Source: a virus
Reading direction: 5' to 3' (one strand)
Length of the DNA: 64,000 nucleotides
IMG/VR virus record: IMGVR_UViG_3300043429_000427
In this document: positions 34,547 to 55,199 of the stretch, one piece after another
Position numbering within the stretch: the first letter of the stretch is position 1
Layout: each line of letters starts with the position of its first letter
Position numbers and translations under genes: made by a program
Notes under the pieces: generated by a model
The model's input: only the letters and a program-made list of their open reading frames with translations
What the model was told of the DNA's origin: nothing
Database searches by the model: none

Positions 34547-34987
34547 TTAATCGAAAAATTCTACAATAATTCCAGCTTCTTTAAACATTTGATTTGAGCG
34601 TTCTGCCGATTCTTGCCACTTTGGGCTCATAGCACCTTTACCACTTCGTAGTACAATCTTCTTTACACCTGCTGATATAATTGCTCTTGCACAATCTGCA
34701 CAACTAATACCACAAGTCATATACATAGTAGTACCTAATGTAGATACACCTATACGAGCTGCGTTGTAAATACAATTCCGTTCCGCGTGTTCAAACCAAA
34801 AGTATTTCTCTGGCTTTTCTTGTCTTTCTACAACATCATCGTTGATACCACGAGGAAATGAGTTATAGCCGGTAGATACAATCTCATTGTTCTCACCAAC
34901 TAATACAACACCAATTTTTGTATTATTATCTTTTGATTTCAACTTCACCTGTTCGGCAATGTTGATAAAATATTCATCCCAATTCAT
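34547..34987 (-). CDS. dCMP deaminase
   Basis: SKD..TKIG, GYNSFPRG, HAERN, CADCARAI. Confidence 0.9.
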   Translation of the reverse strand: MNWDEYFINIAEQVKLKSKDNNTKIGVVLVGENNEIVSTGYNSFPRGINDDVVERQEKPEKYFWFEHAERNCIYNAARIGVSTLGTTMYMTCGISCADCARAIISAGVKKIVLRSGKGAMSPKWQESAERSNQMFKEAGIIVEFFD

Positions 34988-35361
34988 TATCCTATAACTT
35001 CTCTTATGTAACTTCTTATAAATAAATAAAGTAATTCGTATTGTTTGATTACTACTAATGGTATTACAGTATCTTTGTCAATAGTGGCTAATGGTGTTCC
35101 ACCTTCCCATAGAGTAGTGTGCAATCTACAAATATCAGTATCCTTACCTCTCTCATCTATCCAGTTTTGGATTTTTCGTTCTAATATAAAATAACCTGAA
35201 TATTTTGTACCTTTTACATTATTCGTATAACTAAATGAAAATGAATATTTTTCATCAGCCGTTGCCATTGCATCTATACTAAACTCAAACAACTCACTAT
35301 TACTACCTTGTTGTTTTTTACCGATTAGTAAATCTATATTTTCTATGTTTATCTTCTTCAT
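34987..35361 (-). CDS. LTIxN-family paralogue
   Basis: MKKINIENIDLLIG; shares the family pattern. Confidence 0.55.
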   Translation of the reverse strand: MKKINIENIDLLIGKKQQGSNSELFEFSIDAMATADEKYSFSFSYTNNVKGTKYSGYFILERKIQNWIDERGKDTDICRLHTTLWEGGTPLATIDKDTVIPLVVIKQYELLYLFIRSYIREVIG

Positions 35362-35399
35362 ATGTTTAACTGATTAAAGTGCAATATAGGTATAATAAT

Positions 35400-35615
35400 T
35401 TACTTTTCCAAATTTTTAACACCATATTTTATGTATTTGTACCAAAATCTTTCGTGAAGAAAATAGATGAATGGTTTTAAGAATAACTCACCCAAGCCAA
35501 AGGCGGCTCCAATACGAACATCACCACTCAAATACCACATTGTTAAGAAACCAACGGTGGTACTGATTATTCTATAACTAATTGTTTTTAGTATGTGTCG
35601 TTTTACGTCTACCAT
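35400..35615 (-). CDS. DUF2061-like small membrane protein
   Basis: RHILKTISYR..YFLHERFW. Confidence 0.7.
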   Translation of the reverse strand: MVDVKRHILKTISYRIISTTVGFLTMWYLSGDVRIGAAFGLGELFLKPFIYFLHERFWYKYIKYGVKNLEK

Positions 35616-36171
35616 TTTTTGTAACTACATAATCTATAATAAAGTGTACCCTATCCTCATCGCTTAAATTTTCAACAGAGTGTCCTTTTGAATTATCAAT
35701 TTCCCAAATCTCACCCTCCTTCATATTTTTTTCTTCCATTTCAGGATAACCTACTATAAAAAATACTTCTGGATTTGTTATTAAAGCAATATGTGTTCTG
35801 CGTGGAATCACCAATCCTCTACCCGTATCCGCATGTGGGGTTATATCGTGATTTGCCAATAGCTTAACTAATATAACTCTGTTAAAATAACCATCACCAT
35901 ATTTTTGTCTATATAATGGTTCAATCTTGTCTAAAAACTTTTGGATTTCCAATTCATAAAATAAAGGATGTTTTTCTGATACTTCTAATGTATCAACATT
36001 TTCTATATCCCACATCAATGGTAAAGATTCTGTATATCTATGTGCATCATACATCTCTTGTCGTTTTGTATATGCTTTCCAATACGATTCATCCAACGAT
36101 TTAACTTTATGTTTTAAATCGGATACATCAACAATACCAACATAATTATAGTTTACATAATCAACTGCCAT
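35578..36171 (-). CDS. Asp/Asn beta-hydroxylase-like 2OG-Fe(II) oxygenase
   Basis: ITPHADTG, RTHIALITNP, GEIWEIDN..HSVEN..RVHFIID. Confidence 0.8.
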   Translation of the reverse strand: MAVDYVNYNYVGIVDVSDLKHKVKSLDESYWKAYTKRQEMYDAHRYTESLPLMWDIENVDTLEVSEKHPLFYELEIQKFLDKIEPLYRQKYGDGYFNRVILVKLLANHDITPHADTGRGLVIPRRTHIALITNPEVFFIVGYPEMEEKNMKEGEIWEIDNSKGHSVENLSDEDRVHFIIDYVVTKNGRRKTTHTKNN

Positions 36172-36182
36172 AATATATTATA

Positions 36183-37334
36183 TTAATTATCTTCATTTTT
36201 AAAAGGTTTTTCATACTTGGGTTTAATCATACTCCAAATTAAATGGTCGTATGGTTTTTTATCCCACATCTTAAACATCACCGCAGATAATTCTTTTGGG
36301 AATTGTTTAGTATATTCAGCAAACTCTTTTTTAGTTGGTTCTACTTCCTTATCATTATACTTACCATAACGGAATCCATCATGCAACTTACCTGCTCTTT
36401 CATCTATTGAGTAGAAACTATATCGCAAGTTCATAACCACTGCTTTCACCCATTTATCAAACTCATCGGGTACTCTCTCCAAAAATGGTTCTAATGGTTC
36501 ACCATTCTTCAATAGTTCCCAAATATCTTTGGTAGAAAAATTAGTAAGGATTCTATGTAATCTCACATACTCATCACCTTTAATCTTCATTCGCATACCA
36601 CCTGAAAAACGAATTACATATCCTTCGGAATCATTTGAAATCATTTTTTTCAATTTGGTATAATCATTCACACCATCGTATCTATTAACAATATCCCATC
36701 CCTCATTCACCATCTCATCAACCTCAACCTCTTTACCGGTTTCGTTATTGTAAGCACCTAACACAACCAATTTTTCCTCATCACCATAATCTACAACGAT
36801 TCGATTTTCAGGATAAATGATTTCAACTAAATAAGTGTAGCCAGGTATTAAAGCAGTTTTGCTTAATTTATCTAATAACTCCTTACCTTTGATAGCTTGT
36901 TCGGATGTAAATGAACCACGAGTTGCCATATGCCACTCACCTTCGTAGTGGAATATAATACCCAACGAACCATCCATCTTTTCAAATACTTCAAAGGGCT
37001 CATTTGGAATGACACTACGCATTTCCCAACCACCGCATTCTTCAGGGTGAGCACAGTTAATCATACCTGATTTTCTACACCCTTCACAATGTGCATACTT
37101 ATCATCTTTAATTTCTTCGTAGTTAAAGAACTTTGGGAATGGTTTGGCAATAACATTACCTTCGTTATCCAATACTAAACCTCTACAAGCCAATGTATAT
37201 CTATCCCAATTACCATCGTATTGTGTGGTGCGGGAATAGTTGTATATAGACAACGGAAGTGTAGGGTGATTTTGTTTAATCACCTTACCCGTATCAATAT
37301 AATGTTTATGTAAAAGTTCTAAATTGTATTTCAT
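36183..37334 (-). CDS. RNA ligase (T4 Rnl1-like)
   Basis: YNY, CRGLVLD, PFPKFFN, EKMDGSLG (motif I), TRGSF, EII, EGYVI, KIK. Confidence 0.88.
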   Translation of the reverse strand: MKYNLELLHKHYIDTGKVIKQNHPTLPLSIYNYSRTTQYDGNWDRYTLACRGLVLDNEGNVIAKPFPKFFNYEEIKDDKYAHCEGCRKSGMINCAHPEECGGWEMRSVIPNEPFEVFEKMDGSLGIIFHYEGEWHMATRGSFTSEQAIKGKELLDKLSKTALIPGYTYLVEIIYPENRIVVDYGDEEKLVVLGAYNNETGKEVEVDEMVNEGWDIVNRYDGVNDYTKLKKMISNDSEGYVIRFSGGMRMKIKGDEYVRLHRILTNFSTKDIWELLKNGEPLEPFLERVPDEFDKWVKAVVMNLRYSFYSIDERAGKLHDGFRYGKYNDKEVEPTKKEFAEYTKQFPKELSAVMFKMWDKKPYDHLIWSMIKPKYEKPFKNEDN

Positions 37335-37337
37335 AAC

Positions 37338-37598
37338 TTATTTTTTAATAAACTCAAAAATGTGCCAAACAAATTGACCATCCTGAATTGTGTTGATATA
37401 TGTAAAATTATCTGCTTCTGGAAAGTCATGTCCAGTACCAACTATTGTAAAATATCTAAAATCACATTCTGCATCAGTATCTACCAATGCCCATATATAA
37501 GGTAGACCATTTTGTGTTTGGATTGTTAGTACCTTTGCTCCAATTGGCATTTCAATACCTCTACCATCTTTAAGTTCGTATTTGTAAATCCGTTTCAT
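37338..37598 (-). CDS. Hypothetical phage protein
   Basis: IYKY..MPIGAKVL..IWALVD..GTGH..YINT..VWHIFE, a pattern common in phages. Confidence 0.55.
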   Translation of the reverse strand: MKRIYKYELKDGRGIEMPIGAKVLTIQTQNGLPYIWALVDTDAECDFRYFTIVGTGHDFPEADNFTYINTIQDGQFVWHIFEFIKK

Positions 37599-37601
37599 AA
37601 T

Positions 37602-37985
37602 TTATAATTTTACTTCAAAACGATTTCTCATATTACCCAAAGATGCATCGGGTACATTGTGGATACTCTTACCTTCGTGTCGGTTCTCTACGATTACTGA
37701 TGTTACTTTGTACCCGTAGGTTTTAGCCAACTCATAGTAATCTTCCATCTCCCACTCTTGCGTAAATGTGTTTGATACTATTACCTTTGGCTTCTCTCTA
37801 ACCATAAAAGATTCGCATTGTTCTTTACACCAACGATGTGCTTCTTTGATTTTATTAAAATCAAACTTATACTCACCATCTACCATAAAGTACATATCTG
37901 CCTCACAACGGAAACCACCAATCAATTCAGCGAATGTTGATTTTCCACTACCCGGCAATCCTCTCAATAAGATTAACTCTTTCAT
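37602..37985 (-). CDS. P-loop kinase (AAA_33 / polynucleotide kinase-like)
   Basis: LRGLPGSGKST, EAD, VSNTFT, HNVP. Confidence 0.85.
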   Translation of the reverse strand: MKELILLRGLPGSGKSTFAELIGGFRCEADMYFMVDGEYKFDFNKIKEAHRWCKEQCESFMVREKPKVIVSNTFTQEWEMEDYYELAKTYGYKVTSVIVENRHEGKSIHNVPDASLGNMRNRFEVKL

Positions 37986-38830
37986 TTTTTTTCTTCGTAT
38001 ACTTTAACCGATGGTAAACCACTATACTCACAATATAATTCTTCTTTCTGCTTTCGCATTAATTCTTTGATACTCTCATCAAAATATACACCATCCGATT
38101 CCATATCAGCGATGTTCCGTTGCATTGCATTATACACAATCTGCTTTTCTTTTTTTGTTAATGATTGGTTACTTGCCAAATTACCAACAAAGTTTACTAA
38201 ACCGGCACGGGGACCTGATTCTTTGGTATGTTTGTATTCCGTACTTTCCATAACATTGAACTCTCTATACACTGCGATTCCAAATACAACGAATAAAGTA
38301 GCCACTATGGATGTAAGTATTATAACTTCAATATCCATTATTTTTTTGTTTTAGAGTTTATATAATTTAATAATCCCAAAATGGTTGGTGGCCACAATCC
38401 AATAAAGATTGCCTTATTCACATCATTCTCAACTATGTAGTGATATTCACTAACAAAAATTACAATAATTGTGATAACCAAAATCAGTATTTCTGATGTC
38501 TTAAAATTCTTAAACATATTTGTTTGTTTTTGATTACATAGTTCCACACTTCAATACCAACAGGCATAAAGCGAAACCAATGATAAAAAGTAGTAATGGT
38601 GTTTTAATCTCTTGCATTATGATTCCTTTTTAATTTGTTTTTTGTGTTTAAGGATAGCTTCACTTAATTCATTGTACTCCATTTCCAAATAGTTTGGAAT
38701 ACCTTTCTTCTTTGCAATAAATCTTAACTCATGTAAAAACAATTTGCCTGATTGGATGAATTGTTTAGCAGGGGCTGCATCGTATTGAAATTCATTTGGG
38801 TGTGTCATATATCTTTCTTTTAGTGAATAA

Positions 38831-38859
38831 CAAAGGTAAGTAAAAAAATCCACAAATCC
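38831..38859 (-). promoter_or_regulatory. Bacteroidota-type promoter, identical to 34512-34540
   Basis: TACCTTTG -7 box; exact repeat. Confidence 0.7.
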
Positions 38860-38878
38860 TAATTATTTTTACATTATT

Positions 38879-39256
38879 TTAAAACGGAAGTGGTCCAAGT
38901 CCAAAACGAGGATGATTCACTACATACTGATTGATAATTTGACCTAACCGCATCATAAGATTGTTTGGTGGTTTCCTTAACCAATTCAAAGTACAAAAGT
39001 GTTCATATACTGCAGTTCCATTTTCAAAATCAATAAACACTATCTTATAGACTTTTTCTTTATCTGCACTCACTTCCATTTCCACATTTCTATGTAATCT
39101 AATTATTACAAATTTATTATCAGCATCATACCTGCTACCCATTTTAAATTCGTAATACTCTTCGGTTGGTTTGTACATCAACAACGTCCAACCATCAAAG
39201 GTATTTAGGATTCTATAATCCTTTAATCTTTCTTCAAAGTTTTGTATTGTTAGCAT
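38879..39256 (-). CDS. LTIxN-family paralogue
   Basis: Starts MLTIQNFEE. Confidence 0.7.
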   Translation of the reverse strand: MLTIQNFEERLKDYRILNTFDGWTLLMYKPTEEYYEFKMGSRYDADNKFVIIRLHRNVEMEVSADKEKVYKIVFIDFENGTAVYEHFCTLNWLRKPPNNLMMRLGQIINQYVVNHPRFGLGPLPF

Positions 39257-39513
39257 TATAGTAATTGGATTTCGGTTATCAATTGTGTTACACCTTCTTC
39301 AGTTAAGAACCCAATCACATCATCAGTAATTGGTGTATCGTATGTAATCTCACCTTCGGTATTCAATACTGCCAACTCATACAACCCATCCTTACCTCCG
39401 TATGAATATTTATGACATATCACACTTACACCAAATCCGTTCTCAAACATAGTACGAGAGTATATACCTCCTCCAAAAACTTCCTTAAATTCTAAATCTT
39501 TAAATTCTTTCAT
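39256..39513 (-). CDS. Conserved phage hypothetical protein
   Basis: FENGFGVSVI..SYGGKDGLYELAVL..DDVIGFL. Confidence 0.6.
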   Translation of the reverse strand: MKEFKDLEFKEVFGGGIYSRTMFENGFGVSVICHKYSYGGKDGLYELAVLNTEGEITYDTPITDDVIGFLTEEGVTQLITEIQLL

Positions 39514-39571
39514 ATCTTTATTTTAAATTATAACCCAACACCTCCGGTCGGTCAAAGGAATTTTTGATAGT

Positions 39572-39913
39572 TTATTTATTCTTTAATTCAAAATCAAAAG
39601 CATCTACTACGGATTGGATAAATGAATCTTTATCCTTTAATCCATTAGCGGTTATCCCACCTTCATTAAACTTCTTTCCATTCAACCATAGTTCGAATCT
39701 ATATTGTTTCTTATACTCATTATTATACTCTCTCGTCAATAGCAACTTACCCCTATTCGTACCCAAAGCGGATACAAATGAAATTAAGTAACACTTTGGT
39801 TCCATGATATTCAAATCCGAATCGTATTTATACATCTCATCGTATAGTGAATCAATACTCCACCCATTACAATATGTACCTTCTAATAATCTAAAGTTAT
39901 GGATTGTTAGCAT
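39572..39913 (-). CDS. LTIxN-family paralogue
   Basis: Starts MLTIHNFRL. Confidence 0.7.
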   Translation of the reverse strand: MLTIHNFRLLEGTYCNGWSIDSLYDEMYKYDSDLNIMEPKCYLISFVSALGTNRGKLLLTREYNNEYKKQYRFELWLNGKKFNEGGITANGLKDKDSFIQSVVDAFDFELKNK

Positions 39914-40226
39914 GTGATATAATTCTTCTTAATGTTCGTATCATAGATGTTACACTTCCTATATTTGCTTCCGTTACCCAAACTGAATTGAATGGTTCAA
40001 ATGTATCCGTAATCTTATAATATTTTGCACTTAACATTGCATCAAGCCCTTCTTCTTCTTTTAGGATGAATACTCTATCATCTGCAGTAGCGGATGTTCT
40101 TAAATGGATTTGATAATCACCTTCAGGTCCATAAGTATGAACTCCTACAACTGTCCATATAGTAGTTGGGTTTGGAACTATAAATTGCTCCCCAACCAAC
40201 TTATCTGTATTTTGGATTTTTAGCAT
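39897..40226 (-). CDS. LTIxN-family paralogue
   Basis: Start revised to MLKIQNTDKL (ATG at 40226). Confidence 0.7.
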   Translation of the reverse strand: MLKIQNTDKLVGEQFIVPNPTTIWTVVGVHTYGPEGDYQIHLRTSATADDRVFILKEEEGLDAMLSAKYYKITDTFEPFNSVWVTEANIGSVTSMIRTLRRIISHANNP

Positions 40227-40555
40227 ATGTTTATCCTTACCAAATAATGTGAACCAATCCAATTTACTAAATCTTTTGGGTCTTTTAGATATTGTTTGTG
40301 AATTTTATTTAATCCTCTACTTGCATAAGGTCCTTCGAAAAAGGAATCCGTTAAATACTCAAACCCATTATCTTCTACTTGTCTAAACACCTTTACAAAA
40401 TGAGCTTGATGTATAGAAAACACACCATCTATTTGGGGTAAAAATGCTATCTCATACCAATTCTCACTTTCCTCAATCGTAGCTACCTTCCACCTCTGCC
40501 CCATACAACTTATATTGGCATTCGTTATTTTATCGTAATTCTCTATCGTTAGCAT
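40220..40555 (-). CDS. LTIxN-family paralogue
   Basis: Starts MLTIENYDKI. Confidence 0.7.
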   Translation of the reverse strand: MLTIENYDKITNANISCMGQRWKVATIEESENWYEIAFLPQIDGVFSIHQAHFVKVFRQVEDNGFEYLTDSFFEGPYASRGLNKIHKQYLKDPKDLVNWIGSHYLVRINIC

Positions 40556-40884
40556 ATCCTTTGTAATTTATGTATTAATTCGGTTACCTGTGATGCTAGG
40601 AGGTAGGGCATTTGCAAATCATCTATATCAACCATCATTTTTACCCTAGTTGCATATCCTATTATAAACAACTTATACTTTCCTTGCGCATTGGGTGTTC
40701 TATCTAAACAAACCGCAACATCATCTCCATTTAACTTATATGCGTTTTGAACTCTGGTATTAAAATCACTTACTCTAAAATAAAATACATACCCTAATTG
40801 GTTTGGAGTCATATCAACTTTGTGTGCAAATTTACCATTACACAACATCATTTTAAACTTATCCGTATTATGTATTGTTAGCAT
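40549..40884 (-). CDS. LTIxN-family paralogue
   Basis: Starts MLTIHNTDKF. Confidence 0.7.
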   Translation of the reverse strand: MLTIHNTDKFKMMLCNGKFAHKVDMTPNQLGYVFYFRVSDFNTRVQNAYKLNGDDVAVCLDRTPNAQGKYKLFIIGYATRVKMMVDIDDLQMPYLLASQVTELIHKLQRIC

Positions 40885-40885
40885 A

Positions 40886-41269
40886 TTACATATGTTTTAC
40901 TATTTTATCTGTCATCCAAGTATAGAACCCAATTCTATCCTTTAGGTTAGCAAGACCCACAGTACCTGCGTAAATCAAACCTTCACTTTGGACAAGTGAC
41001 CAATCCAATCCTTTGTGTTTCTCGTCGTAAATCTCAAAGTTATATATGGTTGGTTTATTGAACAATGGATTTCTTTCTAAAAAACATTTGAATCGGCGAG
41101 GTTCATCATTATAATTCCAATAGAATGAATAACTATCACAATCACGAGAAGAACCATTACCTACACCACCATCCTTATTGCACAAACCAGCATCTACCAA
41201 TTTGAATGAACCTATTTGGATTCCGGTCTCGTCGTGGGCACCTCTCCTTGGGTTTTGAATTGTTAGCAT
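40886..41269 (-). CDS. LTIxN-family paralogue
   Basis: Starts MLTIQNPRR. Confidence 0.7.
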   Translation of the reverse strand: MLTIQNPRRGAHDETGIQIGSFKLVDAGLCNKDGGVGNGSSRDCDSYSFYWNYNDEPRRFKCFLERNPLFNKPTIYNFEIYDEKHKGLDWSLVQSEGLIYAGTVGLANLKDRIGFYTWMTDKIVKHM

Positions 41270-41272
41270 GGG

Positions 41273-41563
41273 TTATAATGTAAAATTATCCAATGATTTT
41301 AGTAGGTTGTCCATATCCTTAATCCAACTTGCGGTTACACCAATGTGAGTTAGTCTACCATCCGCTCTTTTGAACAAATAAATGTTCTCACCATTCCTTA
41401 CCTTTGCAGGGGTTCGTTGTAGGTAAACCGTTGTGGATATGTGTGATGATGATTCAACCAATTTAATCTCATAGTGTTTATCGGTTTCATCGCAAAAAGA
41501 AACCTCCCAACCCTTTCCTACGGATTTACCACATAACTTATAATAGTGTTTTATTGTTAGCAT
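41273..41563 (-). CDS. LTIxN-family paralogue
   Basis: Starts MLTIKHYYKL. Confidence 0.7.
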   Translation of the reverse strand: MLTIKHYYKLCGKSVGKGWEVSFCDETDKHYEIKLVESSSHISTTVYLQRTPAKVRNGENIYLFKRADGRLTHIGVTASWIKDMDNLLKSLDNFTL

Positions 41564-41569
41564 ATCTTA

Positions 41570-41899
41570 TTAAAATTCAAAGTAATTGTTCCATAAACGA
41601 GTCTGAATACTAATCCACATATTGAATCGTTTGAAATCTAAAAAGTGAGTTGGTCCAAACTTTTCAGCTGGGAATTTGGTGTGGAAGTTTATCCCATCAC
41701 CACTCCTTGCTATGTTAAGTGTGTAGGTTTCCCGTTTCCAATCAAACTCTACTAATATTACATTACGGCATGGAAGTTGGGGGTATATCCACATATGGTT
41801 GGGGTCACCCATACTATCTCCCAATCGGAATGGTATCCCATCCGATGATTCAAAGCTATGTCCTTTAATCTTTTCAGCAAAATTTTGTGGTGCGTTCAT
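41570..41899 (-). CDS. Hypothetical, possible divergent LTIxN paralogue
   Basis: Start revised to MNAPQNFAEKIKG, downstream of the promoter. Confidence 0.5.
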   Translation of the reverse strand: MNAPQNFAEKIKGHSFESSDGIPFRLGDSMGDPNHMWIYPQLPCRNVILVEFDWKRETYTLNIARSGDGINFHTKFPAEKFGPTHFLDFKRFNMWISIQTRLWNNYFEF

Positions 41900-41925
41900 A
41901 CGATTTATATTTAACTGATGTTTAA

Positions 41926-41962
41926 CAAAGGTAAGAAGAATACTTGATAATGTCAAGTCTTT
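41926..41962 (-). promoter_or_regulatory. Early-type promoter driving the LTIxN array
   Basis: AAAGACTTGACA..TACCTTTG. Confidence 0.75.
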
Positions 41963-42358
41963 GGTTAAATATTTTTTTAATCAATACCAAGAAGATTTCG
42001 CATATTATCCGATGAAGTGCGGTATGGGTGTTTCAATTCTTTATGGAGTTTTGCAATACGTCTATGTGCAGAAGAGAACCGAATTACCCGACCAACATCT
42101 GAAACATGATACTTATTCAAAAACGAAGGAAATGAAGTTGAGATATATGGCATATTACCAATGTAAATTATCTCCGTATCAAGTGAGTTTAATTCACATC
42201 CCTTCGGAATGTTTTTATCCAATGCTTCATTTAATAGTTTATTTGGAATAATCCGACCATAAACCAAATGGCTTACTATCTCAACCACTATGAATATAAA
42301 TGGTAAAATAATACAAAGTTTTAATATTAAATCGTTCATAATTTTATTTGTTTTAAGT

Positions 42359-42784
42359 TTACCAACCACTATGAGTTCCACCATAGTTTTGTTGTTTAGC
42401 TATTTCTATAAGTTTGTCTATACAAGCATTCTCTGCTTCTTCGTAGGTGTCATAATCACAATCTCCACCACCCAAATCTGTATTATTTATAACAAATTTT
42501 TGTTTCTTAATATGAAGAATATCATAACCATAAAATATGTGGTTAATTTTACCAGACCATATATTAGGTAATAAACTATACTTCTCCCTAAACCATCTAA
42601 ATACTTGTTGTTTAAGTGGTGCTAACATCTCATCTATGCCCTGAACGTGTTTATCTTCAATAATACCTCCAATTCGTAGATGTGAATTAGTAAACCACCC
42701 AAAACAGCTTTCATCAAAACCTAATTTCTTTAAGGCTAATGCTTGTTCGTATGTTACAAATTCTTTATCCATTGTCTTTGCCAT
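42359..42784 (-). CDS. Conserved phage hypothetical protein
   Basis: KEFVTYEQALALKKLGFDE..APLKQQVFRWFREKY..TYEEAE. Confidence 0.6.
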   Translation of the reverse strand: MAKTMDKEFVTYEQALALKKLGFDESCFGWFTNSHLRIGGIIEDKHVQGIDEMLAPLKQQVFRWFREKYSLLPNIWSGKINHIFYGYDILHIKKQKFVINNTDLGGGDCDYDTYEEAENACIDKLIEIAKQQNYGGTHSGW

Positions 42785-45465: not shown

Positions 45466-45502
45466 CAAAGGTACGCAGAATATGTGAGAATGTCAAGTCT
45501 TT
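45466..45502 (-). promoter_or_regulatory. Early-type promoter
   Basis: AAAGACTTGACA..TACCTTTG. Confidence 0.75.
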
Positions 45503-45636
45503 GCTCAATTATTTTTATATTATCCCAAAAAAATTTTAGGGTATAGGGGTATAATACGAAAAACCCCACCAGCATAGCGGGAGGGGTTATTAAAGGGAAA
45601 AACAAAACATTAACTAAAACAAACCAAATATCGGTG

Positions 45637-45708
45637 GGTGTAAGGACGGTATCGAACCGTCTTCTCTGGCTCCACAAACCAGCGCTTCACCTTAAAGCTT
45701 CAAACACC
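45637..45708 (-). tRNA. tRNA-His(GTG), atypical
   Basis: D stem GCTT/AAGC; anticodon arm CTGGT-TTGTGGA-GCCAG; T arm GACGG-TTCGATA-CCGTC; G-1:C73; two T-T mismatches in the acceptor stem. Confidence 0.8.
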
Positions 45709-46012: not shown

Positions 46013-46049
46013 TCCAAAATATTTTTAAAAAAAATAAAATATTATTTAT

Positions 46050-46099: not shown

Positions 46100-46296
46100 T
46101 TCTTTGTTTTATCACATCTACTTAACATAATGTAAATTATATAACGAGAATATATTAGAATAGTACAATTATTGTATTTTTTTAAGAATCGGGTTTACAA
46201 TTGTAAAATTCTCGCGTGTGTTTCCAGCATTTTGAGAGAATTTCTCGTACGCACGAATGAAAACGGCGTGTACGGATTGCATAGGATTATTCTTAT

Positions 46297-46496: not shown

Positions 46497-46605
46497 ATAT
46501 CCATACCTCGTCATAGGGCTCTTTTATAGACCTCTCGTATGTGATTATACACCCATCTCCGTTTTAACACCTTATAGACGAGCAAAGTAATAGATTCAAC
46601 AGTGT

Positions 46606-46968
46606 TTATTGAGTGAGTTGCCTTGCACTATGATGTATAACATTGAATACCCTCTTTACCTCCTTAAATTCATCTAATGTTAGGAATTTAGTACATCCTC
46701 TTTTTAGGGGTTGATTTATATCCTTACAAAAAATTTTTACATATCCATCGTTTGGGGGTATTGTAGGGTCATATAATTGTTCGGTTTGAGAATATATCTC
46801 TACACCTATTTTTATAAAATTATTCAAATTATTATCTTTATCGGTTAGTGTATAGTGGTATGTACCTTCCTTATTATCCCTTCCTATATAGGTCAATTTC
46901 CAACTCGTTACTAATCCATTTGAATAAGTACATAACCTTATAGGTGATTGTATGTTTATTCTCTTCAT
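46606..46968 (-). CDS. LTIxN-family paralogue (divergent)
   Basis: MKRINIQSPIRL..W..Y..; ends LDEFKEVKRVFNVI. Confidence 0.55.
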   Translation of the reverse strand: MKRINIQSPIRLCTYSNGLVTSWKLTYIGRDNKEGTYHYTLTDKDNNLNNFIKIGVEIYSQTEQLYDPTIPPNDGYVKIFCKDINQPLKRGCTKFLTLDEFKEVKRVFNVIHHSARQLTQ

Positions 46969-46974
46969 ATCCTA

Positions 46975-47361
46975 TTAGACTACCTTTACCAAATGTGATT
47001 TACACAATACCCTATCCATCAACTCACCCAATCTTAATTCAAATACCCCCATATTCTCTATCATATACTTATCCATAGCCTCTACTATAAATTGGTTCTT
47101 TTCTTCTTCATAGGATAGTTCCCAACAGTGATTCAGTTCTCTAGGGTATTGGATTCTCTTTCTATCCAATTTTATATCATACATACCTATCCCCGTTAGG
47201 GTAGGGCTTACTGGCTCATAGACCTGTACTTTGAATATATAACTACACCCATCCGTTCCGAATTTATCTATTACATCTTCTATTGTTCCTTGATTTATAT
47301 CTGGATTCTTTATAGGGATTCTTTTGCCTAGTATCTTATGTAGGTTATGTATCTTTAGCAT
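46975..47361 (-). CDS. LTIxN-family paralogue
   Basis: Start revised to MLKIHNLHKILG (ATG at 47361). Confidence 0.65.
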   Translation of the reverse strand: MLKIHNLHKILGKRIPIKNPDINQGTIEDVIDKFGTDGCSYIFKVQVYEPVSPTLTGIGMYDIKLDRKRIQYPRELNHCWELSYEEEKNQFIVEAMDKYMIENMGVFELRLGELMDRVLCKSHLVKVV

Positions 47362-47509
47362 TTGCTGAAATATTTTTATCTTGTTTGTCCCACGCTCCAA
47401 ATCACACTTCAAGGCATACTTAAAAGTGTTTCGGACATTGATTTTTGTACTATCAAAAAAAATTAGGTTTCGACTGCGTATCCCCCAACCCCCTTCCCCC
47501 TGCGGTTCT

Positions 47510-48121
47510 CTATATACCATTCAATAAGTCACTAATTTGTTGTAGCTTTTCCGAATCACCACCACTTACCGAAGTCCCACCACTAAATTGTGCTATTGAG
47601 GATGTAGGAAAAGTACGATTACTCAAATCCATCACACCAACCATATCCACTAATTTCTCTTTGAAACACTCTAAATTCGATATACACATTGAACTCACAC
47701 TATCAAAATTTTCGTCCCCTGCCCATAGTGTATAGAAATTTATACCACCATCCGTTGTGAAACTCTTATTTCTCTCCAACCACACCACCTTCCTATTGGG
47801 TTGCAATGCCGTTCCACTATCTACCATTATTGTAAACACATACTCATTATCCCTCACCTCTATTGTATCTATACGAGGATAATATGTAGCATTTTCCAAT
47901 CGTTGGTTTTCCAGCTTTTGGATGTTTTGGATGTTTAATTTCGTTTGCTTCTCTTCCATCTTTTTTGTTGGGTTATCCCACATTTCCATTTCTAGTTTGT
48001 GTATATCCCACATTGATTTTTGTGTCTCTAAAATTTTTTGTTGGGTATCTATCTGCATCTTTAACCTGTCTACCTCCAAATCCATCTGTAACTTTTTCCA
48101 AGCATCCATCAATTGCCCCAT
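47510..48121 (-). CDS. LTIxN-family domain with N-terminal coiled-coil extension
   Basis: Internal KLNIQNIQKLEN..YVFTI..WLERN..YTL. Confidence 0.6.
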   Translation of the reverse strand: MGQLMDAWKKLQMDLEVDRLKMQIDTQQKILETQKSMWDIHKLEMEMWDNPTKKMEEKQTKLNIQNIQKLENQRLENATYYPRIDTIEVRDNEYVFTIMVDSGTALQPNRKVVWLERNKSFTTDGGINFYTLWAGDENFDSVSSMCISNLECFKEKLVDMVGVMDLSNRTFPTSSIAQFSGGTSVSGGDSEKLQQISDLLNGI

Positions 48122-49790
48122 TCTATCCTATTTGAGCTTTATCGTTCTCATCCAAGTCAAAATTGTATAACCCACACTCTTCATCCTTTTTCATCATCTC
48201 TTTCAATATGGATTCTCTCTTCCTTTTATCTCTCTCATCCAACTCATACTTAATGGTATCCCATAGGGGATAGATAAACACCATAAAAACTAACAAACTC
48301 ACCAATCCAGTTGTTATCCACCACGCCAGGTTTGGAAAATCTTTAATCACCACACATACCAAAGCAAATACACCAATGATACCCATAGTGTATAGGGCTG
48401 CTAATACATCATTTTTGCTCATAATTTATTTTTATTTTTAATATATTCTTTAATTTCGTTTGCATTCATTGGTGGTTTATCCTTTAACTCTTCCGCCAAT
48501 TGTAAATTATTCTTGCTTATCTCACCTGGACCTGATTCATCATTGTTTATACTCACCAATGCATCCCACATTGGGAATAGTGATTTAATCCATTTCATAA
48601 TCCTAATTTTTCTAGCATTTTAGTAAACCAACCTTTTTTGGATTCTCTTTCTTTTCGTAATTTCTCTTGGTATTGCATAACCTCCAGTGCTTCACCAAAT
48701 CCAATTGGTTCACCATTACGAACCATATCGGATAATTGTTCTAATCTTTCGTCCTTCATATCACTATTATTTTTTATAGGCAGAGTTCATTAGTTTTCGT
48801 ATCACCTTTTTGTAAGCGTGCTTCCTACATTGCTTTTCTTCTTGCTTTGTTAAAGGTGTTGTACTCCAAAAATTACCACATGAAGATGTATAAACACCTT
48901 CAAACTCTTTCATATCTGAACCATCGGCAGAATATCCTGTGTATATTGCCATATTTCTATTATTTATATTTTTACTCTAAATCCCCAACGAGATACTCCC
49001 ATCCACTCCGTACCATAGCAATCTACCCAATACCTCACCTCATCACCACCTATACTATCATAGAAGCTCCTACCCGTAGGTTTCATACTCCATCTACTTT
49101 TGAACCACTTTATCATTTATTTTCTCTTCTTTGAATTTCTCTTTTTCGGTATTCCAGTCTCAACCGCTCATCATCCCTCTCTTTTAATATAAGCCTCACT
49201 TGCAATGAAATCACATATACAAATACACAAAGGAAACTAAAAACTAGGAGAAAGGGTAGGTAATCACCTAACAAACTCCCAATGAAGGCGATTAAAATCA
49301 AACCAGCCACCACACCTAACAACACACCGATTGCTATAATAATGGAAAGGATATTCCGTTTCCAAATAATTTTTTTATATTCGTTCATATTATTGTTTTT
49401 TACCAAAATCTCTTACCCAAGCTTCATCCAATCTCTCCATAAACTCTTTTTGCGTTTCCTTCTTCTTTTTGGTTTTAGGTTTTTGGGGATATGTTTTATC
49501 ATAATACTCATTCCAATTATCCTCATCATCCAACCCATCTTTGACTAATCGGATTACACCAAACAATGCCATCCCACCAAATATAATAACAAAGGTGTGT
49601 ATAAAGTATTGTGGGTAATTAAAATAGAACATTGCCAATCCCACTACAAACAATCCCATACCACCCAACACTCCGATAGTAAGACAGAATGCTTTTAACC
49701 AATTTTTTTGATTTCTATTCATATTTTTAAGTTTTATACCCACAATATACGAATTATTTGTGGTATTTCCAAGTGATTTTATGGAAATTT

Positions 49791-50237
49791 TTAAGGGATG
49801 CGGGTAATTGTTGGGTTTCGTTTTTTTGGTCCTATTGGACTTGGTCCGAATGCGGCTGTTAGATAGTTATCGTGGATTATTTGTAATACTCTATCCATAT
49901 TCTTAAATGTACTAACTAAAATTTTTTGCATAGATTTACCTTTTCTCTTTGCATCCTCTATACTCATATTGATATACCCATCCTTATGTACATCTTTATC
50001 ATCCAAATTTATACTATAATTGTGGATTTCTTTATATATCCGCATTTCAGCTAATTGGATTTTTTGCAAAGGATTGGTTATAGGTACATCTATTAAATCG
50101 TATCTATAATACTCTCTACCAAAATCTTTACCCGTACCCTTATACTCTACACCATAGTGTAACCCATCACCCATTTCAATATGCTCTAACTTAAATGGGT
50201 TTACTATATTGATATTCTTTTCCCCTTTTGTTATCAT
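49791..50237 (-). CDS. LTIxN-family paralogue (divergent)
   Basis: NINIVNPFKL; most similar to 46606..46968. Confidence 0.5.
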   Translation of the reverse strand: MITKGEKNINIVNPFKLEHIEMGDGLHYGVEYKGTGKDFGREYYRYDLIDVPITNPLQKIQLAEMRIYKEIHNYSINLDDKDVHKDGYINMSIEDAKRKGKSMQKILVSTFKNMDRVLQIIHDNYLTAAFGPSPIGPKKRNPTITRIP

Positions 50238-50461
50238 ATCTCTCCGAAATATTGTGCAGTTACTGCAATGAACACTCTCATCATATCCTCATCTACCTTA
50301 CCCTGTGCTCTCACAAAATCCATATAGATTTCAGCAAGGTATTTGGTCATCTCACTTTGTCTATCTATATTGTTGTTCTTTGATTTCTGAATCATTTTCA
50401 TATAGGCGTCATAGCCACCATTCTCATAGAACTGATTGAATTTATCTATTGTATTCATCTC

Positions 50462-50917
50462 TTAAAACTTATATCCTATACCCATACCAACCGTTGATAT
50501 TTTGGAAATCTGATACTCTGCTCTAACAACTGCTTTATTATCAGGTCCAAAGGAGAAATCAATACCTACCCCCACATATGGATTTTTGGATTTCTTGCCA
50601 TCATTTTCCACAAATTGTGCTCCAGTTGATAAAAACACATTTGCATCCTTATTGTTTCTGATATTGAATATAGGTAAGAACATACCGAAATTGTTGAATG
50701 TACCTATACTAACATTCTCATCATCTCGCAATCCACCACGCTTAAATTCAATACCAACTTTTTTAAATTTAGCCCAAGCACCCCCCATCATAGATGGGTT
50801 TAACTCGTTTGATGTAAAGCCACCTAACAAACCTATTGTTGGGTGAAATGATTTTTTATCCTGTCCATAGGATACCCACGATAACAATACTCCTGCAATT
50901 ACTAATAATTTTTTCAT
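50462..50917 (-). CDS. Outer-membrane beta-barrel-like protein
   Basis: Signal peptide; amphipathic strands; PYVGVG; C-terminal GMGIGYKF. Confidence 0.6.
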   Translation of the reverse strand: MKKLLVIAGVLLSWVSYGQDKKSFHPTIGLLGGFTSNELNPSMMGGAWAKFKKVGIEFKRGGLRDDENVSIGTFNNFGMFLPIFNIRNNKDANVFLSTGAQFVENDGKKSKNPYVGVGIDFSFGPDNKAVVRAEYQISKISTVGMGIGYKF

Positions 50918-51014
50918 AACTTTTTTTGTTTATTTCTTTGATGTCAATCTACCATATATTACACCCACTAAAAATACAGATACTATCGTACCTATCATTA
51001 CTAACTCTACCATA

Positions 51015-51584
51015 TTATTTCATATAATCTCTACCAGGTTTGTCACCGTCTTTATACTTCGCAAAGAATGTCATAGTCATTCTACCATCTTCAATATCTT
51101 CACCAAACGGATTGGTTGCGGAATGTAGTATATTGGATGGATAGAAAGCACACGTATTATATATATTTTCTATATCCAATATAATTTTACCAGGCTCACT
51201 ATAAAATGTTGTACCACTATTAGGTTCTGGATTTGGATGTAAGTATATTATACCAGCCCAATCAAAATAATCACTATCCTTATGAAAAAATGTATCCGAA
51301 TAATTTTTTCCATCACTCACCCAATTTGTGTCAGAAAGTATATGGAAAACCCAAAGTATATCCAATGGTTTTAAATTGGGTATTCGTTCTCGCATCCGTT
51401 GGTAAATATATTCATCAATATTCAACCCACCAATAGTACCAGCTAAATCCGATGTACGCAACCCACGCCAATAATCACCATTTTCTAATTTGGGTGTATG
51501 GTATTCCATTGCTAACCCACATTCACGAATCTTATCAGCGTTTGGAAAGAAATCTTTTACTTCATGTATTTCTCCACATTGCAT
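51015..51584 (-). CDS. 2OG-Fe(II) oxygenase
   Basis: WRGLRT, HKD, WAGIIYL, SGTTFY, YN..HSA, RMT. Confidence 0.75.
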   Translation of the reverse strand: MQCGEIHEVKDFFPNADKIRECGLAMEYHTPKLENGDYWRGLRTSDLAGTIGGLNIDEYIYQRMRERIPNLKPLDILWVFHILSDTNWVSDGKNYSDTFFHKDSDYFDWAGIIYLHPNPEPNSGTTFYSEPGKIILDIENIYNTCAFYPSNILHSATNPFGEDIEDGRMTMTFFAKYKDGDKPGRDYMK

Positions 51585-51593
51585 ACTTTAATT

Positions 51594-52085
51594 CTATTTT
51601 TTTGATTTTGCCCTAATAGCAGTTCCACTAATCTCTGCTATATCGGTAGGTGGTTCGTGATATATTACATCATATCCTACACCTCTACCATAGTTTACCG
51701 AATCAATATCAGGTATGATTGAAATATATAACCTACCTGTCTTTATGTAATCTTTTAATTGTAAATTTAGATTAGTCTTTACCTCTTCGGCTGAATATGG
51801 ATTGTTCTCATCCTTTGGTACATCTCTAATAGCTACCCATACATTGTTACCTTTTTCAAATTGTTGGTCAATCAACCATTTATGGCCATCATGCCAATTC
51901 TGCCACCTACCTATAAACAAACTATATTTTAGTTTTGTTTTTGGGGTGCAATAATACGATGTGGTAGGTCCTTTTGGGAACTCCACTACATAATCATCAC
52001 CAATTGGTTCAAATTGTCTGAAAGGTTTGTGCTCCTTCTCAAACTCATCCAAACGATTGTTTGCATCATCTAAATCAAATGCCAT
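51594..52085 (-). CDS. Cytidylyltransferase-like (HxGH) nucleotidyltransferase
   Basis: FIGRWQNWHDGH, NPY, ISGTAIR. Confidence 0.75.
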   Translation of the reverse strand: MAFDLDDANNRLDEFEKEHKPFRQFEPIGDDYVVEFPKGPTTSYYCTPKTKLKYSLFIGRWQNWHDGHKWLIDQQFEKGNNVWVAIRDVPKDENNPYSAEEVKTNLNLQLKDYIKTGRLYISIIPDIDSVNYGRGVGYDVIYHEPPTDIAEISGTAIRAKSKK

Positions 52086-52596
52086 AGCTATTCACTTAAA
52101 TACTCTTTTTTGAATTTTACTTCGTCAGATATATACATTCTATATTCTTTTAAATGATTTTCTAATATACACAAATCGCATACTAATGACATACTTCCAT
52201 CTGGCTCCATATGTACGAAATCCAAATCATTTAATTTTTGAAAAAATGTTTTAGTAGATTCAATAGCATTTGGGTCTATCTCATCAAAATTTTCGCTATT
52301 AATAGCTGCTACAAATTGTTTAAATGTGTACTTTTTATTCATTGTTTTCATCTCCAAAAGATTTTGGTATATTCAATTGCTCAAAAATATGCTCTGTTTC
52401 TTCCGTTCTTTCTAAATGGTGCATTACATAATCAGTATCACCGACCATACCAAAGTTAGGGTCTTCTGCCAATTCTTTAATTAGGTTATCCACATCATCT
52501 TGTGTAGGTGAACCTTCCCAAACACAAATGTGCTTTACCAAAACTTTGTTTTCTTCTTCTTGCTTTACCGCAAGAGTTGCGTATTTAATTTCCATT

Positions 52597-53043
52597 TTAT
52601 ATATTTATGTATTTTCTTCTAATCCTACCTGCACCTTTATATCCTTTCTTATACCTAGGTTCATCTAAACTACTAATCTTAACACCGTCTGCTCTATTGG
52701 CTGCATGTACTATTTGATTATTACCTATATATGTACCACAATGCCACCCGCTGGGCGATATTTTACTTTTAAAGAATACTAAGTCACCCAACTCCAAACT
52801 ATCTCTATCAATCCTATCGGTTTGTATCCATTGTGTTTGGCAATTGTTACCCAACTTAATCTCAAATACCTCTTTGTATAGGCGTTTGTTGAATTGTGAG
52901 CAATCTATACCTCTTTCGGTACTACCACCCAATCTATACGGCTTACCTACCCAATACCATATAAACTTATTCATAGTTGAATCAGTTGTTTGTGCAAAGG
53001 TAGGAAAACTTAATAATACAAATATACTAATTTTTTTCATCAT
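52597..53043 (-). CDS. NlpC/P60 peptidase
   Basis: GKPYRLGG..GIDCS, GDLVFF, HCGTY..HA. Confidence 0.88.
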   Translation of the reverse strand: MMKKISIFVLLSFPTFAQTTDSTMNKFIWYWVGKPYRLGGSTERGIDCSQFNKRLYKEVFEIKLGNNCQTQWIQTDRIDRDSLELGDLVFFKSKISPSGWHCGTYIGNNQIVHAANRADGVKISSLDEPRYKKGYKGAGRIRRKYINI

Positions 53044-53660
53044 TCACAAATAAATCTTACTTTTCTTTCTAACGAATCCTTTTCAATCCTTACAAATAAT
53101 TGGGATGTTGGGATTTCTTTACTAATATGACATACAGCAGTAATTGTTATAGTATCACCTCGCATTGGATATATTGGTGCAAATATGGTATTAACACTAC
53201 CGGTTGTTGACGATGAATAAGATGAACCATTTACCGTTGGGATTATCGCACCATATTGTGCTTTTATAGTACCCAACTCAACCGTTGTAAGTTTACCTGT
53301 AAATTGATTAAAGAAAGTTTTATATACAACAAATAGCGATGAATTACTATTCAATACCCAATAGTGTGAACTTTTCCACTCAACCCACATATCCACAGGC
53401 GATGGGCGAGGATTTGGTTTACCATTCCACAAAAATCTACCAGTAATACGGCTAAATGTTTGAAATGATTTTTCCGATAATTTTAAATGATAAAATCCAG
53501 CCGCATCCTTTGGTAAACTTCTAGTACCATATTCATTCATAGCCGAATCAATCTCAAATGTGAAATTGTATGGTGGTGGTTTGGGTATTATATATTCCGG
53601 CTCTTTTACGCAAGATATAACTCCTAATAAAATTGGTAAAAATATCAGTAACTTTTTCAT
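53040..53660 (-). CDS. Putative lipoprotein
   Basis: Signal peptide with VISC lipobox. Confidence 0.55.
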   Translation of the reverse strand: MKKLLIFLPILLGVISCVKEPEYIIPKPPPYNFTFEIDSAMNEYGTRSLPKDAAGFYHLKLSEKSFQTFSRITGRFLWNGKPNPRPSPVDMWVEWKSSHYWVLNSNSSLFVVYKTFFNQFTGKLTTVELGTIKAQYGAIIPTVNGSSYSSSTTGSVNTIFAPIYPMRGDTITITAVCHISKEIPTSQLFVRIEKDSLERKVRFICE

Positions 53661-54004
53661 CTTTCGTTTACAAAATCATCTAGCATCTCCTTAATTGCTT
53701 TTATCATATTATCACTACTCTCCAACGCTTTCTTTTTTATACCCAAATCTTTTTGTTTAATTCTACCAGTATCAAGAGGTTGATAAATTGATGTATTATA
53801 AACTGGTGTTTTATCGTTTGGCCATTTTGGGTCTACATCATTTCTTTTAGTTCTATTTATAATAATTCCAATATCTATATTTTGAAATGAAATAGCGTAA
53901 CCTACAAATATTCTATATACATCTTGATATTCAAGTATATCATGTATTCGTAGTTTATCATCTTGATAACCAACCAGCTTGTCAATGTTATTTATGGTTA
54001 GCAT
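53657..54004 (-). CDS. LTIxN-family paralogue
   Basis: Start revised to MLTINNIDKLVG (ATG at 54004). Confidence 0.7.
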   Translation of the reverse strand: MLTINNIDKLVGYQDDKLRIHDILEYQDVYRIFVGYAISFQNIDIGIIINRTKRNDVDPKWPNDKTPVYNTSIYQPLDTGRIKQKDLGIKKKALESSDNMIKAIKEMLDDFVNER

Positions 54005-54330
54005 TTTATACCATTTACTATACCCTGAATCAATTTTAATAAATCCCATTCTGTTTTTAAGTCAGATGGTTCTAAAAATAATTCTTCAACGGATTCCCAA
54101 TTGTTTCCAGAATACCATAATTTTGTTTCTAAATGATACCCATGCCCATCAACTTTATTCCTATTAAGTGAAACTTCTACATATGGAATTGATTTTTGTT
54201 TATTTTGAAAAATAATAAAATATACATCTTCAAGTGTATCTGCACTATCAATAAACCAATCGCCAAAATCAAATAGTTGAATATTTAACGGGTCATATAC
54301 TTTATTAAAATTTTGTATCGTTAGTTTCAT
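53998..54330 (-). CDS. LTIxN-family paralogue
   Basis: Starts MKLTIQNFNKV. Confidence 0.7.
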   Translation of the reverse strand: MKLTIQNFNKVYDPLNIQLFDFGDWFIDSADTLEDVYFIIFQNKQKSIPYVEVSLNRNKVDGHGYHLETKLWYSGNNWESVEELFLEPSDLKTEWDLLKLIQGIVNGIKC

Positions 54331-54916
54331 ACATTTCTAAAATATAATTTATCACCACTCGCCTATTTGTAATTTTTGGTGGTGATGATGTGTGTATTTG
54401 TTTTGAATTAAACACAATGCCTGTACCAAATGATGGTGTTTCTCTATGTATTTCGGTTAGTTTTTCTATATTATGTGGGTTTCCATCTAGCTCTTCATCA
54501 AATATAATAGTATCACCATCGGCATCATTCACATAATATAAAAATGTAACTATATTTTTACCATAATAATCAACATGCGGTCCATGATAAAAACCATCCG
54601 GATAATTTTCATCTTTGGTGATTAAATTGGCTTTTATACGAATCAATCTCTTTACTTTACCTATATGTGGTTCTAAATGAGAAATCATTTCCGAAAAAAA
54701 GTGATAATATTCACTTTGTGGTTTCTCATTCATAAAAATGGTATGTGTAAATTGGGGGCTGTCTTTTGTTTTAGAATCAATTACAGCGCCCAATTCATAT
54801 TCATATATGGTAGCTTCATTCCAAAACCAAGCAAAATCACTACTCAATGTTAGTTGCGATAATATATCCGCATATTCTTTATCTATTTCTATTCTTTTTA
54901 CCATAATAGTTTTCAA
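54305..54916 (-). CDS. 2OG-Fe(II) oxygenase
   Basis: RIKANL, PHVD, FLYYVNDADGDT, HTSSPP..RRVVIN. Confidence 0.78.
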   Translation of the reverse strand: MKTIMVKRIEIDKEYADILSQLTLSSDFAWFWNEATIYEYELGAVIDSKTKDSPQFTHTIFMNEKPQSEYYHFFSEMISHLEPHIGKVKRLIRIKANLITKDENYPDGFYHGPHVDYYGKNIVTFLYYVNDADGDTIIFDEELDGNPHNIEKLTEIHRETPSFGTGIVFNSKQIHTSSPPKITNRRVVINYILEMYETNDTKF

Positions 54917-55199
54917 ATAGTTCTACAAATCCATTAAGTGTAAACAACATATCTTCGGTTGTTTGAATTTGATTTAGTAAAAATTGTCCTCTATCTTTAT
55001 GCTTTCCATAATTAAATTCAACCTCAAACAAACCATTATGTTGGTTTCTGTAAATCATTAGGTTTCCACCTTTTAGTTTGTGATTAAATAGAATTTTGTA
55101 AGTACCATCCAATATCAATACATGTGTTATTACTGAACCTTCTTCGGTTCTTCTACCTATTAGATTCTCAATTGTTTGGATTGTTAATTTTTTGCTCAT
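54879..55199 (-). CDS. LTIxN-family paralogue
   Basis: Starts MSKKLTIQTIENLIG. Confidence 0.6.
   Translation of the reverse strand: MSKKLTIQTIENLIGRRTEEGSVITHVLILDGTYKILFNHKLKGGNLMIYRNQHNGLFEVEFNYGKHKDRGQFLLNQIQTTEDMLFTLNGFVELFENYYGKKNRNR

Follow-up and report, generated by a model that had tools for sequence, protein, structure and literature searches.

An apparently undescribed family of small, highly diverged proteins encoded in tandem arrays of a presumed freshwater jumbo phage

Arrays of paralogous genes are already known from giant phages, and comparable arrangements occur in other viruses. The multigene families (MGF) of poxviruses and African swine fever virus are tandem paralogues that evolve as a 'gene accordion' and are tied to host interaction. 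The internal proteins of phage T4 are small and otherwise variable, and carry a common N-terminal capsid-targeting sequence, and the 'hyperplastic regions' of T4-type phages contain small early genes that are shuffled via short conserved flanking elements (promoter-early stem-loops). In Bacillus phage G, a lineage-specific expansion of the kind seen in jumbo phages comprises a zinc-ribbon family of ~35 copies (Iyer et al. 2021, PMC7824862). Here, we analyzed a stretch of 64,000 nucleotides (IMG/VR virus record IMGVR_UViG_3300043429_000427; hereafter the window), in which sixteen small open reading frames (ORFs), m01 to m16, had been noticed between positions 34987 and 55199. Most of them encode a family that we name MLTIxN, defined by a family alignment and an external hidden Markov model (HMM); the family itself appears to be undescribed. 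We read it, with a probability of roughly 55%, as an unannotated multigene family of jumbo phages that provides a diversified panel of intracellular host-protein binders.

The locus resembles the phage G expansion in that many diverged copies of a small domain of unknown function stand head-to-tail on one strand of a giant phage, and it resembles jumbo-phage expansions generally in a copy number that varies among relatives and in a presumed role in host conflict. However, the family and its fold are unrelated to those of phage G and belong to another phage clade (freshwater, probably with Bacteroidota hosts). Moreover, the invariant part is the extreme N-terminus rather than an internal or C-terminal motif, and the gene start is conserved as DNA or RNA. 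The T4 internal proteins share with the present ones a short conserved N-terminal peptide on variable small phage proteins, whereas the peptide described here always accompanies one domain, is modeled as a part of it, lacks the protease-site residue, and is encoded outside the structural module. Similarly, tandem paralogy, rapid divergence, and gain and loss between strains recall the MGF families, but this is a bacterial virus with much smaller proteins that have no sequence or fold relation to them, and the role in host interaction is here a proposed one. Finally, the T4 hyperplastic regions also combine short conserved nucleotide elements bordering variable small genes with a content that varies among relatives; in the present locus, by contrast, conservation lies in the first 18 coding bases rather than in an intergenic promoter-hairpin, and recombination there is only putative.

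All sixteen ORFs were present with the N-termini quoted in the initial annotation. As with every gene in the AT-rich window (~32% G+C), they lie on the minus strand, and all features below are on this strand. The positions given for them earlier mark where the ORFs stop, at their low coordinates, while the motifs lie at the high ends (e.g., MLTIQN at 39256). We analyzed family membership with an external profile built from non-window sequences only, from which all columns through the KL.G turn, including the motif, had been removed. This motif-stripped profile matched 12 window ORFs (m02-m08, m11, m12, and m14-m16) with E-values from 3e-19 to 3e-4, and the best non-member ORF of the window scored E 0.26. 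The ortholog alignment of m01 matched the family over its full length (hhalign probability 95%, E 3.3e-8, 97 columns), and the stripped HMM aligned with m01 in part (E 2.5e-3). The INI subgroup, consisting of m10, m13, and their relatives, matched the family over 89 collinear columns (hhalign probability 70%, E 4.2e-5); the family HMM alone was not significant for either gene. No relation of m09 to the family was detectable by HMM (E 5.7 to 9.6) or hhalign (probability 0.4%). The count is therefore 13 firm members, two probable ones (m10 and m13), and one non-member (m09), so that the earlier figure of about 15 to 16 members holds for the firm and, probably, the two divergent genes, and fails for m09, which has neither the motif nor a family relation.

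Further arrays were gathered from other phages with the m02 alignment and the gene-start DNA pattern, which yielded numerous IMG/VR contigs, where a locus contained as many as 11 tandem genes. When the first eight residues were stripped, iterative profile searching joined the m02, m03, m04, m05, and m08 groups; from a background of 1,890 decoy ORFs it recruited no true decoy, the two that had seemed to be decoys being family genes overlooked by the motif pattern. Between window paralogues, BLASTP E-values were ~1e-5 at best, and the mean column identity was 16-18%, in line with the very low identity past the N-terminus that had been noted before. That these ORFs are not one family, and instead are unrelated small ORFs that came to share a start motif by convergence or gene-start copying, is hardly credible. 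It would agree with a first test, in which hhalign among ortholog-only alignments (m01, m10, and m02 groups) gave nothing significant beyond residue 14; these comparisons were insignificant because the alignments were of low diversity (effective number of sequences, Neff, ~1.6). Once diverse relatives had been included, the motif-stripped HMM, the iterative search, the m01 comparison, and the concordant structure models overturned it. The idea is refuted for 13 of the 16 genes and could apply only to m09 and, weakly, to m10 and m13. Thus, homology past the motif and the agreement of the models support the proposal that a single fold has been diversified into many copies: profile comparisons were significant beyond the first residues, the models were not unrelated, and the family mapped to no characterized Pfam entry and to no other curated library.

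The models themselves were obtained with AlphaFold2 for two members, m08 and m10, on which the test of a common fold rests. The model of m08, calculated from a 91-sequence family alignment, had a predicted local distance difference test score (pLDDT) of 95.6 and a predicted template modeling score (pTM) of 0.85. After an ordered N-terminal segment (mean pLDDT 94 for the first ten residues) come a short helix, six strands, a second short helix, and the C-terminal helix. The model of m10, built from its own orthologs only, reached a pLDDT of 80.7 and showed the same order of elements. Furthermore, the two models shared ~19 of their 50 best Protein Data Bank (PDB) chains, with the Mediator chain 7emf_Q at the top in both. 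As modeled, the members share one compact alpha+beta domain, in which an antiparallel sheet of five to six strands precedes the C-terminal helix. The best PDB fold Z-scores were 6.1 for m08 and 7.2 for m10, at a root-mean-square deviation of ~3-3.6 A over 74-96 residues; a Z below 8 may reflect a mere common arrangement, since chance best values are typically 7-8. Foldseek found nothing at E<=1e-3 in PDB and BFVD, and the ESM Atlas returned only unnamed viral clusters with scores below 0.85. On the evidence of these models, we treat the fold as one without an established relative.

The chains picked up by both models are alpha+beta sandwich modules, namely class I chaperones of type III secretion (SycH 1ttw and SchA 4g6t), YbjN-like proteins, and RWD/UBC-like domains (Ctf19-Mcm21 5mu3, Knl1 4nf9, Atg10, and Mediator 7emf_Q). 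They serve in protein-protein interaction, and in general arrangement they resemble the MLTIxN models, with an antiparallel sheet between a first helix and a C-terminal one. However, the Z-scores were only 5-7, below the chance level, there was no sequence relation, and the catalytic Cys and the HPN motif of E2 enzymes are absent from the MLTIxN family. The likeness thus appears to be one of architecture only.

The skeleton of residues reported earlier proved real in an alignment of 240 sequences: W.V, Y.(I/F), L.R, and Y.L recur in this order, followed by the C-terminal helix. In m08 numbering, the near-invariant positions were M1, L2, I4, N6 (97%), Y31 (100%), R50 (94%), and Y62 (93%), and hydrophobic character was conserved at W19, V21, I33, and L48 and at the helix positions I81, L87, and L91. 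Along the strands, the conserved residues alternate (i, i+2) with positions of 3.5-4.0 bits entropy. Because L2, I4, N6, W19, Y31, I33, L48, R50, and Y62 alternate in this way, conservation falls on one sheet face, and the opposite face varies almost freely. It is presumably the conserved face on which the helices and the N-terminal segment lie.

We next consider the N-terminal motif, whose protein form is (M)[LI][TKN]Ix[NHST] at the extreme start of a protein of 90-130 residues. It was found in 15 of the 16 genes, being absent from m09 and internal to the ORF in m12. The window contains 15 matches to the protein pattern, every one of them on the coding strand and between 34 and 55 kb; in more distant relatives, ~800 kb of sequence gave ~3. 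Its DNA form, ATGCTAAMNATH, occurred 11 times against 0.61 expected, and none of 100 shuffles reached 11. Across 1.76 Mb of loci, 127 of 146 occurrences fell on family members, the other 19 being chance matches or lying on unrelated contigs; in family-bearing phages, the motif was never found on another fold. Position 5 varies among K, Q, E, and H, and no Glu is conserved after the motif. Whether the motif is a targeting tag of the T4 type or a core element of the domain had been left undecided by the initial annotation. Because the motif is confined to this domain, the N-terminus is modeled as ordered, and no T4-type Glu is present, a core element is favored, and a portable T4-type targeting tag is not supported.

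At the DNA level, 11 of 13 window copies use CTA as codon 2, a codon that accounts for 11% of Leu usage in the window (P=2e-9). ATA and ACA make up ~86-90% and ~76-84% of the respective start-region codons, against genome usages of 41% and 47%. Members identified independently of the DNA pattern likewise keep a strong bias at the synonymous positions +4, +6, +9, +12, and +18. Judged by codon choice, the first 18 bases (ATGCTAACAATAnAnAAC) are constrained also as nucleic acid, most likely by a function at the start site or by a role as cassette joints. The N-terminal conservation could even be mainly such a signal, a translational operator or enhancer or a homology joint for cassette shuffling, with the peptide merely carried along. 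This explanation, which is compatible with a binder panel, seems doubtful to us as the principal cause. The synonymous bias of codons 2-6 against genome usage speaks for it, as do the ATGCTAA junctions described below, where start and stop coincide at 8 of 66 junctions, and the differing array contents of relatives. However, the motif residues are modeled as part of the fold, 12-18 bases are short for homologous recombination, and we know of no regulator for such an 18-base gene start. In addition, the third base is not fixed in the Thr and Ile codons, and T may be exchanged for K or R, which argues that the peptide is also under selection.

The family genes stand in tight same-strand tandem arrays. 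Among 66 junctions, a count that extends to other phages, 55 measured 12 nt or less; the commonest form was a stop codon, one nucleotide, and ATG (28 junctions), and eight showed the ATGCTAA overlap. As had been anticipated for the main array, a promoter-like site of the Bacteroidota type (TTGACA...TACCTTTG), identified by its match to the consensus, lies just upstream at 41926-41956. Co-transcription from this site and translational coupling are reasonable inferences; Bacteroidota do not rely on Shine-Dalgarno pairing. A stricter Bacteroidota motif, TTTG-N17-21-TAnnTTTG, was enriched on the coding strand of the window (16 sites, 4.1 expected). A scan for sigma-70 promoters of the E. coli type gave fewer sites than shuffled sequences (34 versus 46.5) and was not used. 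Near-twin promoter-like sequences (TTGACATT..TCA....TATTCT....TACCTTTG) were observed at 41926-41956 and 45466-45496, the latter inside the tRNA-His block, and the pair may define a specific promoter class. The sole sizeable gap within the main array, 58 bases at 39514-39571 between m03 and an 85-residue gene, carries a G+C-rich hairpin and a TTGACC-17-TATAAT match.

In the order of transcription, the main array is headed by m09 (41570..41899, 109 residues, MNAPQNF), the non-member. It is a separate conserved gene (MNAPQNF or MKAPQNF, 109-115 residues) without a Pfam match that heads the array in three phages, its orthologs in the relatives L001 (L001:3404) and L046 (L046:6703) being 42-48% identical. 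The most typical member, m08 (41273..41563, 96 residues, MLTIKH; stripped HMM E 3e-19), follows, and then m07 (40886..41269, 127 residues, MLTIQN; E 6.9e-7; orthologs ~56% identical), m06 (40549..40884, 111 residues, MLTIHN; E 4.2e-8), m05 (40220..40555, 111 residues, MLTIEN; E 1.2e-6), and m04 (39897..40226, 109 residues from MLKIQN; E 1.4e-9). The end of m05 (...C-stop) falls inside the start of m04, whose ATGCTAA encloses the TAA stop. Further on lie m03 (39572..39913, 113 residues, MLTIHN; E 5.4e-9; orthologs ~56% identical), the 85-residue gene (39256..39513), and m02 (38879..39256, 125 residues, MLTIQN; E 1.4e-9), the last gene of the main array. The 85-residue gene is unrelated to the family, with neither a Pfam nor a family HMM match; the single interruption of the array at this point had been correctly recognized, and the gene keeps the same array place, with 63-74% identity, in L001, L046, and L047.

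Outside the main array, m01 (34987..35361, 124 residues, MKKINIEN) is widely conserved, with 46 ortholog clusters. Upstream, m10 (46606..46968, 120 residues, MKRINIQS), likewise widely conserved, is followed at higher coordinates by m11 (46975..47361, 128 residues from MLKIHN; full HMM E 3.4e-12, stripped HMM E 2.7e-4). The ORF of m11 is open upstream to 47520, and its orthologs in L053 and L122 begin at the motif. The 203-residue ORF m12 (47510..48121; full HMM E 3.3e-11, stripped HMM E 3.6e-6) holds the family domain at ~47641-47944, with KLNIQN internal and a C-terminal tail; its true start is uncertain, and the L046 ortholog begins MRLNIEN. The probable divergent member m13 (49791..50237, 148 residues, ...NINIVN) is related to the other one, m10, by BLASTP (E 1.3e-5 over 119 residues). 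The remaining members are m14 (53657..54004, 115 residues from MLTINN; stripped HMM E 3.1e-8), whose ATGCTAA start encloses the stop of m15, m15 itself (53998..54330, 110 residues, MKLTIQN; E 3e-11), and m16 (54879..55199, 106 residues, MSKKLTIQT; full HMM E 1.5e-7, stripped HMM E 1.3e-4). The isoelectric points of the window copies range from 4.6 to 9.4. In one freshwater RNA-seq library, short contigs matched 35171-35357, 40742-40891, 41779-41995, and 46756-46964 without mismatch, that is, parts of m01, m06/m07, m09, and m10; these matches are not counted as expression because DNA carry-over could account for them.

Gene order and identity were then compared with the relatives L001, L046, and L047. 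The window and the relatives have in common the order m12-m11-m10, a gap, m09 and the array, the 85-residue gene, m02, the RNA-repair genes, and m01. The array content turns over: L046 lacks orthologs of m04 and m06 and has two extra copies, L001 has only three array members, the m04 ortholog is present in L047, and no m06 ortholog was found in any of the three. Orthologs of m02 are 78-95% identical in metagenomes and 32-42% identical in the three relatives. In L046, the family orthologs showed a median identity of 41%, compared with 79% for other genes (P=1e-4).

When 1.84 billion representatives were searched with the family profile, 917 clusters (50% identity) matched at E<=1e-3; these proteins were ~90-125 residues long and matched end to end, and all clusters looked up were 'hypothetical' and metagenomic. 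Five partial relatives (contigs of 89-148 kb) carry 12, 8, 34, 17, and 21 copies, compared with 13-15 here. The record behind one of them, L087 (G003), is estimated to be 40% complete, and its 34 family genes form two blocks at ~24.9-32.7 and 42.7-47.7 kb. None of 91 members matched Pfam-A or PHROGs v4, NCBIfam gave three single matches at chance level only, and scanning the window members one by one revealed no curated-family match. A sequence profile search of PDB gave a best E of 0.075, tblastn of m08 found nothing at E<=1 in cultured phages, and the family profile found nothing in Tenacibaculum phage pT24, which had been chosen after a weak BFVD fold match. Species-representative bacterial genomes searched with the m01 alignment gave no match. 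Fused or longer forms were sought and none was found, which is weak evidence. We regard the family as confined to one clade of uncultured jumbo phages from freshwater, the hosts of which are probably Bacteroidota.

A putative effector, anti-defense, or early role is suggested by fast divergence, copy-number turnover, and gene context. In the reading that we prefer, a panel of host-protein binders, packing of the conserved face against the helices and the N-terminal segment would create a rigid scaffold, and the other sheet face with the loops would be the diversified binding surface. Each array would be one operon transcribed from a host-type promoter, with neighboring genes translationally coupled. 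The proteins would act in the cell as binders or inhibitors of variable host proteins, in takeover or counter-defense, and the diversity of the panel would be upheld by duplication, loss, and rapid divergence. A bolder version, which we think rather unlikely, is that of a natural hypervariable binder scaffold, with the invariant N-terminus clasping a rigid core and one sheet face left to vary, encoded in interchangeable cassettes; the 18-base start, which also provides the stop of the preceding gene, would be both a common translational control point and the joint for duplication, loss, and exchange of cassettes between phages. Several points weigh against a binder panel. It is suggested by evolutionary pattern and context that would suit many phage accessory families. 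The divergence seen in L046 followed the same trend in L001 and was not significant there (P=0.09), and speed alone does not single out the family, because other small genes nearby are also only 42-62% identical in L046. Since all fold matches are below noise (Z <=7.2), the binder analogy is unsupported by any specific relative. The evidence for the host consists solely of promoter motifs and habitat.

The near-invariant polar residues N6, Y31, R50, and Y62 need not reflect a scaffold and could instead mark a common ligand or catalytic site. The N-terminus and the Tyr, Arg, and Tyr residues would then form an active site or a pocket for one small molecule, such as a signaling nucleotide, as in phage 'sponge' proteins, and the diversity of the remaining sequence would be a secondary matter. 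Conservation of these four residues at ~16% mean identity does exceed the usual need of a hydrophobic core. We nevertheless hold such a site to be improbable, as one ligand would require neither 8-34 very diverged copies per genome nor a near-maximally variable opposite face, no enzyme or sponge family matched by sequence or fold, and the lack of fused forms counts weakly in the same direction. About equally improbable is that the proteins are packaged and injected, their conserved N-terminus being a targeting or processing signal for entry into the capsid and later ejection with the DNA, by analogy with the T4 internal proteins. The strict position of the conserved peptide at the extreme N-terminus of otherwise hypervariable proteins would fit such a role, and paralogous internal head proteins do occur in jumbo phages. 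However, the motif sits on no other fold in these phages, whereas the T4 signal sits on unrelated proteins; the N-terminus is ordered and integral to the domain in the model; neither a conserved Glu nor any other cleavage motif is present; and the neighbors of the genes, well away from the structural module, are nucleotide and RNA-repair genes.

The genomic surroundings were as follows. The window is read as part of an uncultured freshwater jumbo phage, and the host is probably a member of Bacteroidota, as indicated by promoter type and habitat. Megablast of the 22-kb region against cultured phages gave no DNA-level match, while IMG/VR contigs of up to 373 kb carry relatives of the RNA ligase encoded in the window. 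The same DNA is present in freshwater metagenomes of several studies, an almost letter-for-letter copy of the array occurs in another freshwater sample, and orthologs of m01, m02, and m10 are all on one 219-kb metagenome contig. The low-coordinate part is a tail or baseplate module of a contractile-tailed phage, because it encodes a baseplate wedge subunit homologue at 11414-13429 (phrog_219, E 3e-18). From ~25 kb on, accessory genes follow, including an RNA ligase, an AAA_33 kinase, 2-oxoglutarate (2OG) oxygenases, a sigma region-4 protein, and tRNA-His; the family genes lie outside the baseplate module and have the four types of protein gene among their neighbors. The RNA ligase and the adjoining AAA_33 kinase-like protein (36183-37985), directly downstream of the main array, are likely an RNA-repair pair; the ligase is 35-37% identical to actinophage RNA ligases. 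Three dioxygenase-like genes stand among the family members, namely an Asp/Arg hydroxylase-like gene (35578-36171), one with a weak DUF6445 match (51015-51584), and a 2OG-Fe(II) oxygenase (54305-54916). A 161-residue ORF at 43969-44454 matches Pfam only in sigma-70 region 4 (E 9e-16) and lacks region 2. The only tRNA of the window, tRNA-His (GTG) at 45636-45707, sits in a block of higher G+C content, ~40% at 44-46 kb.

Paralogue arrays are a recurrent and unexplained feature of giant phages, and the MLTIxN family adds a large one named by no database, comprising at least 917 clusters and reaching 34 or more copies in a partial genome. It is tractable, as it has a confident single-domain model without a clear structural relative and a clean division between scaffold and hypervariable face. 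The synonymously conserved start region bears on gene start and coupling in Bacteroidota. If the genes were interchangeable cassettes, they would represent a repertoire system, encoded by the phage, for recognizing host proteins. If the members bind host proteins, many inhibitors of Bacteroidota defense or housekeeping proteins could be drawn from them, and they would be a model for how phages maintain a varied repertoire.

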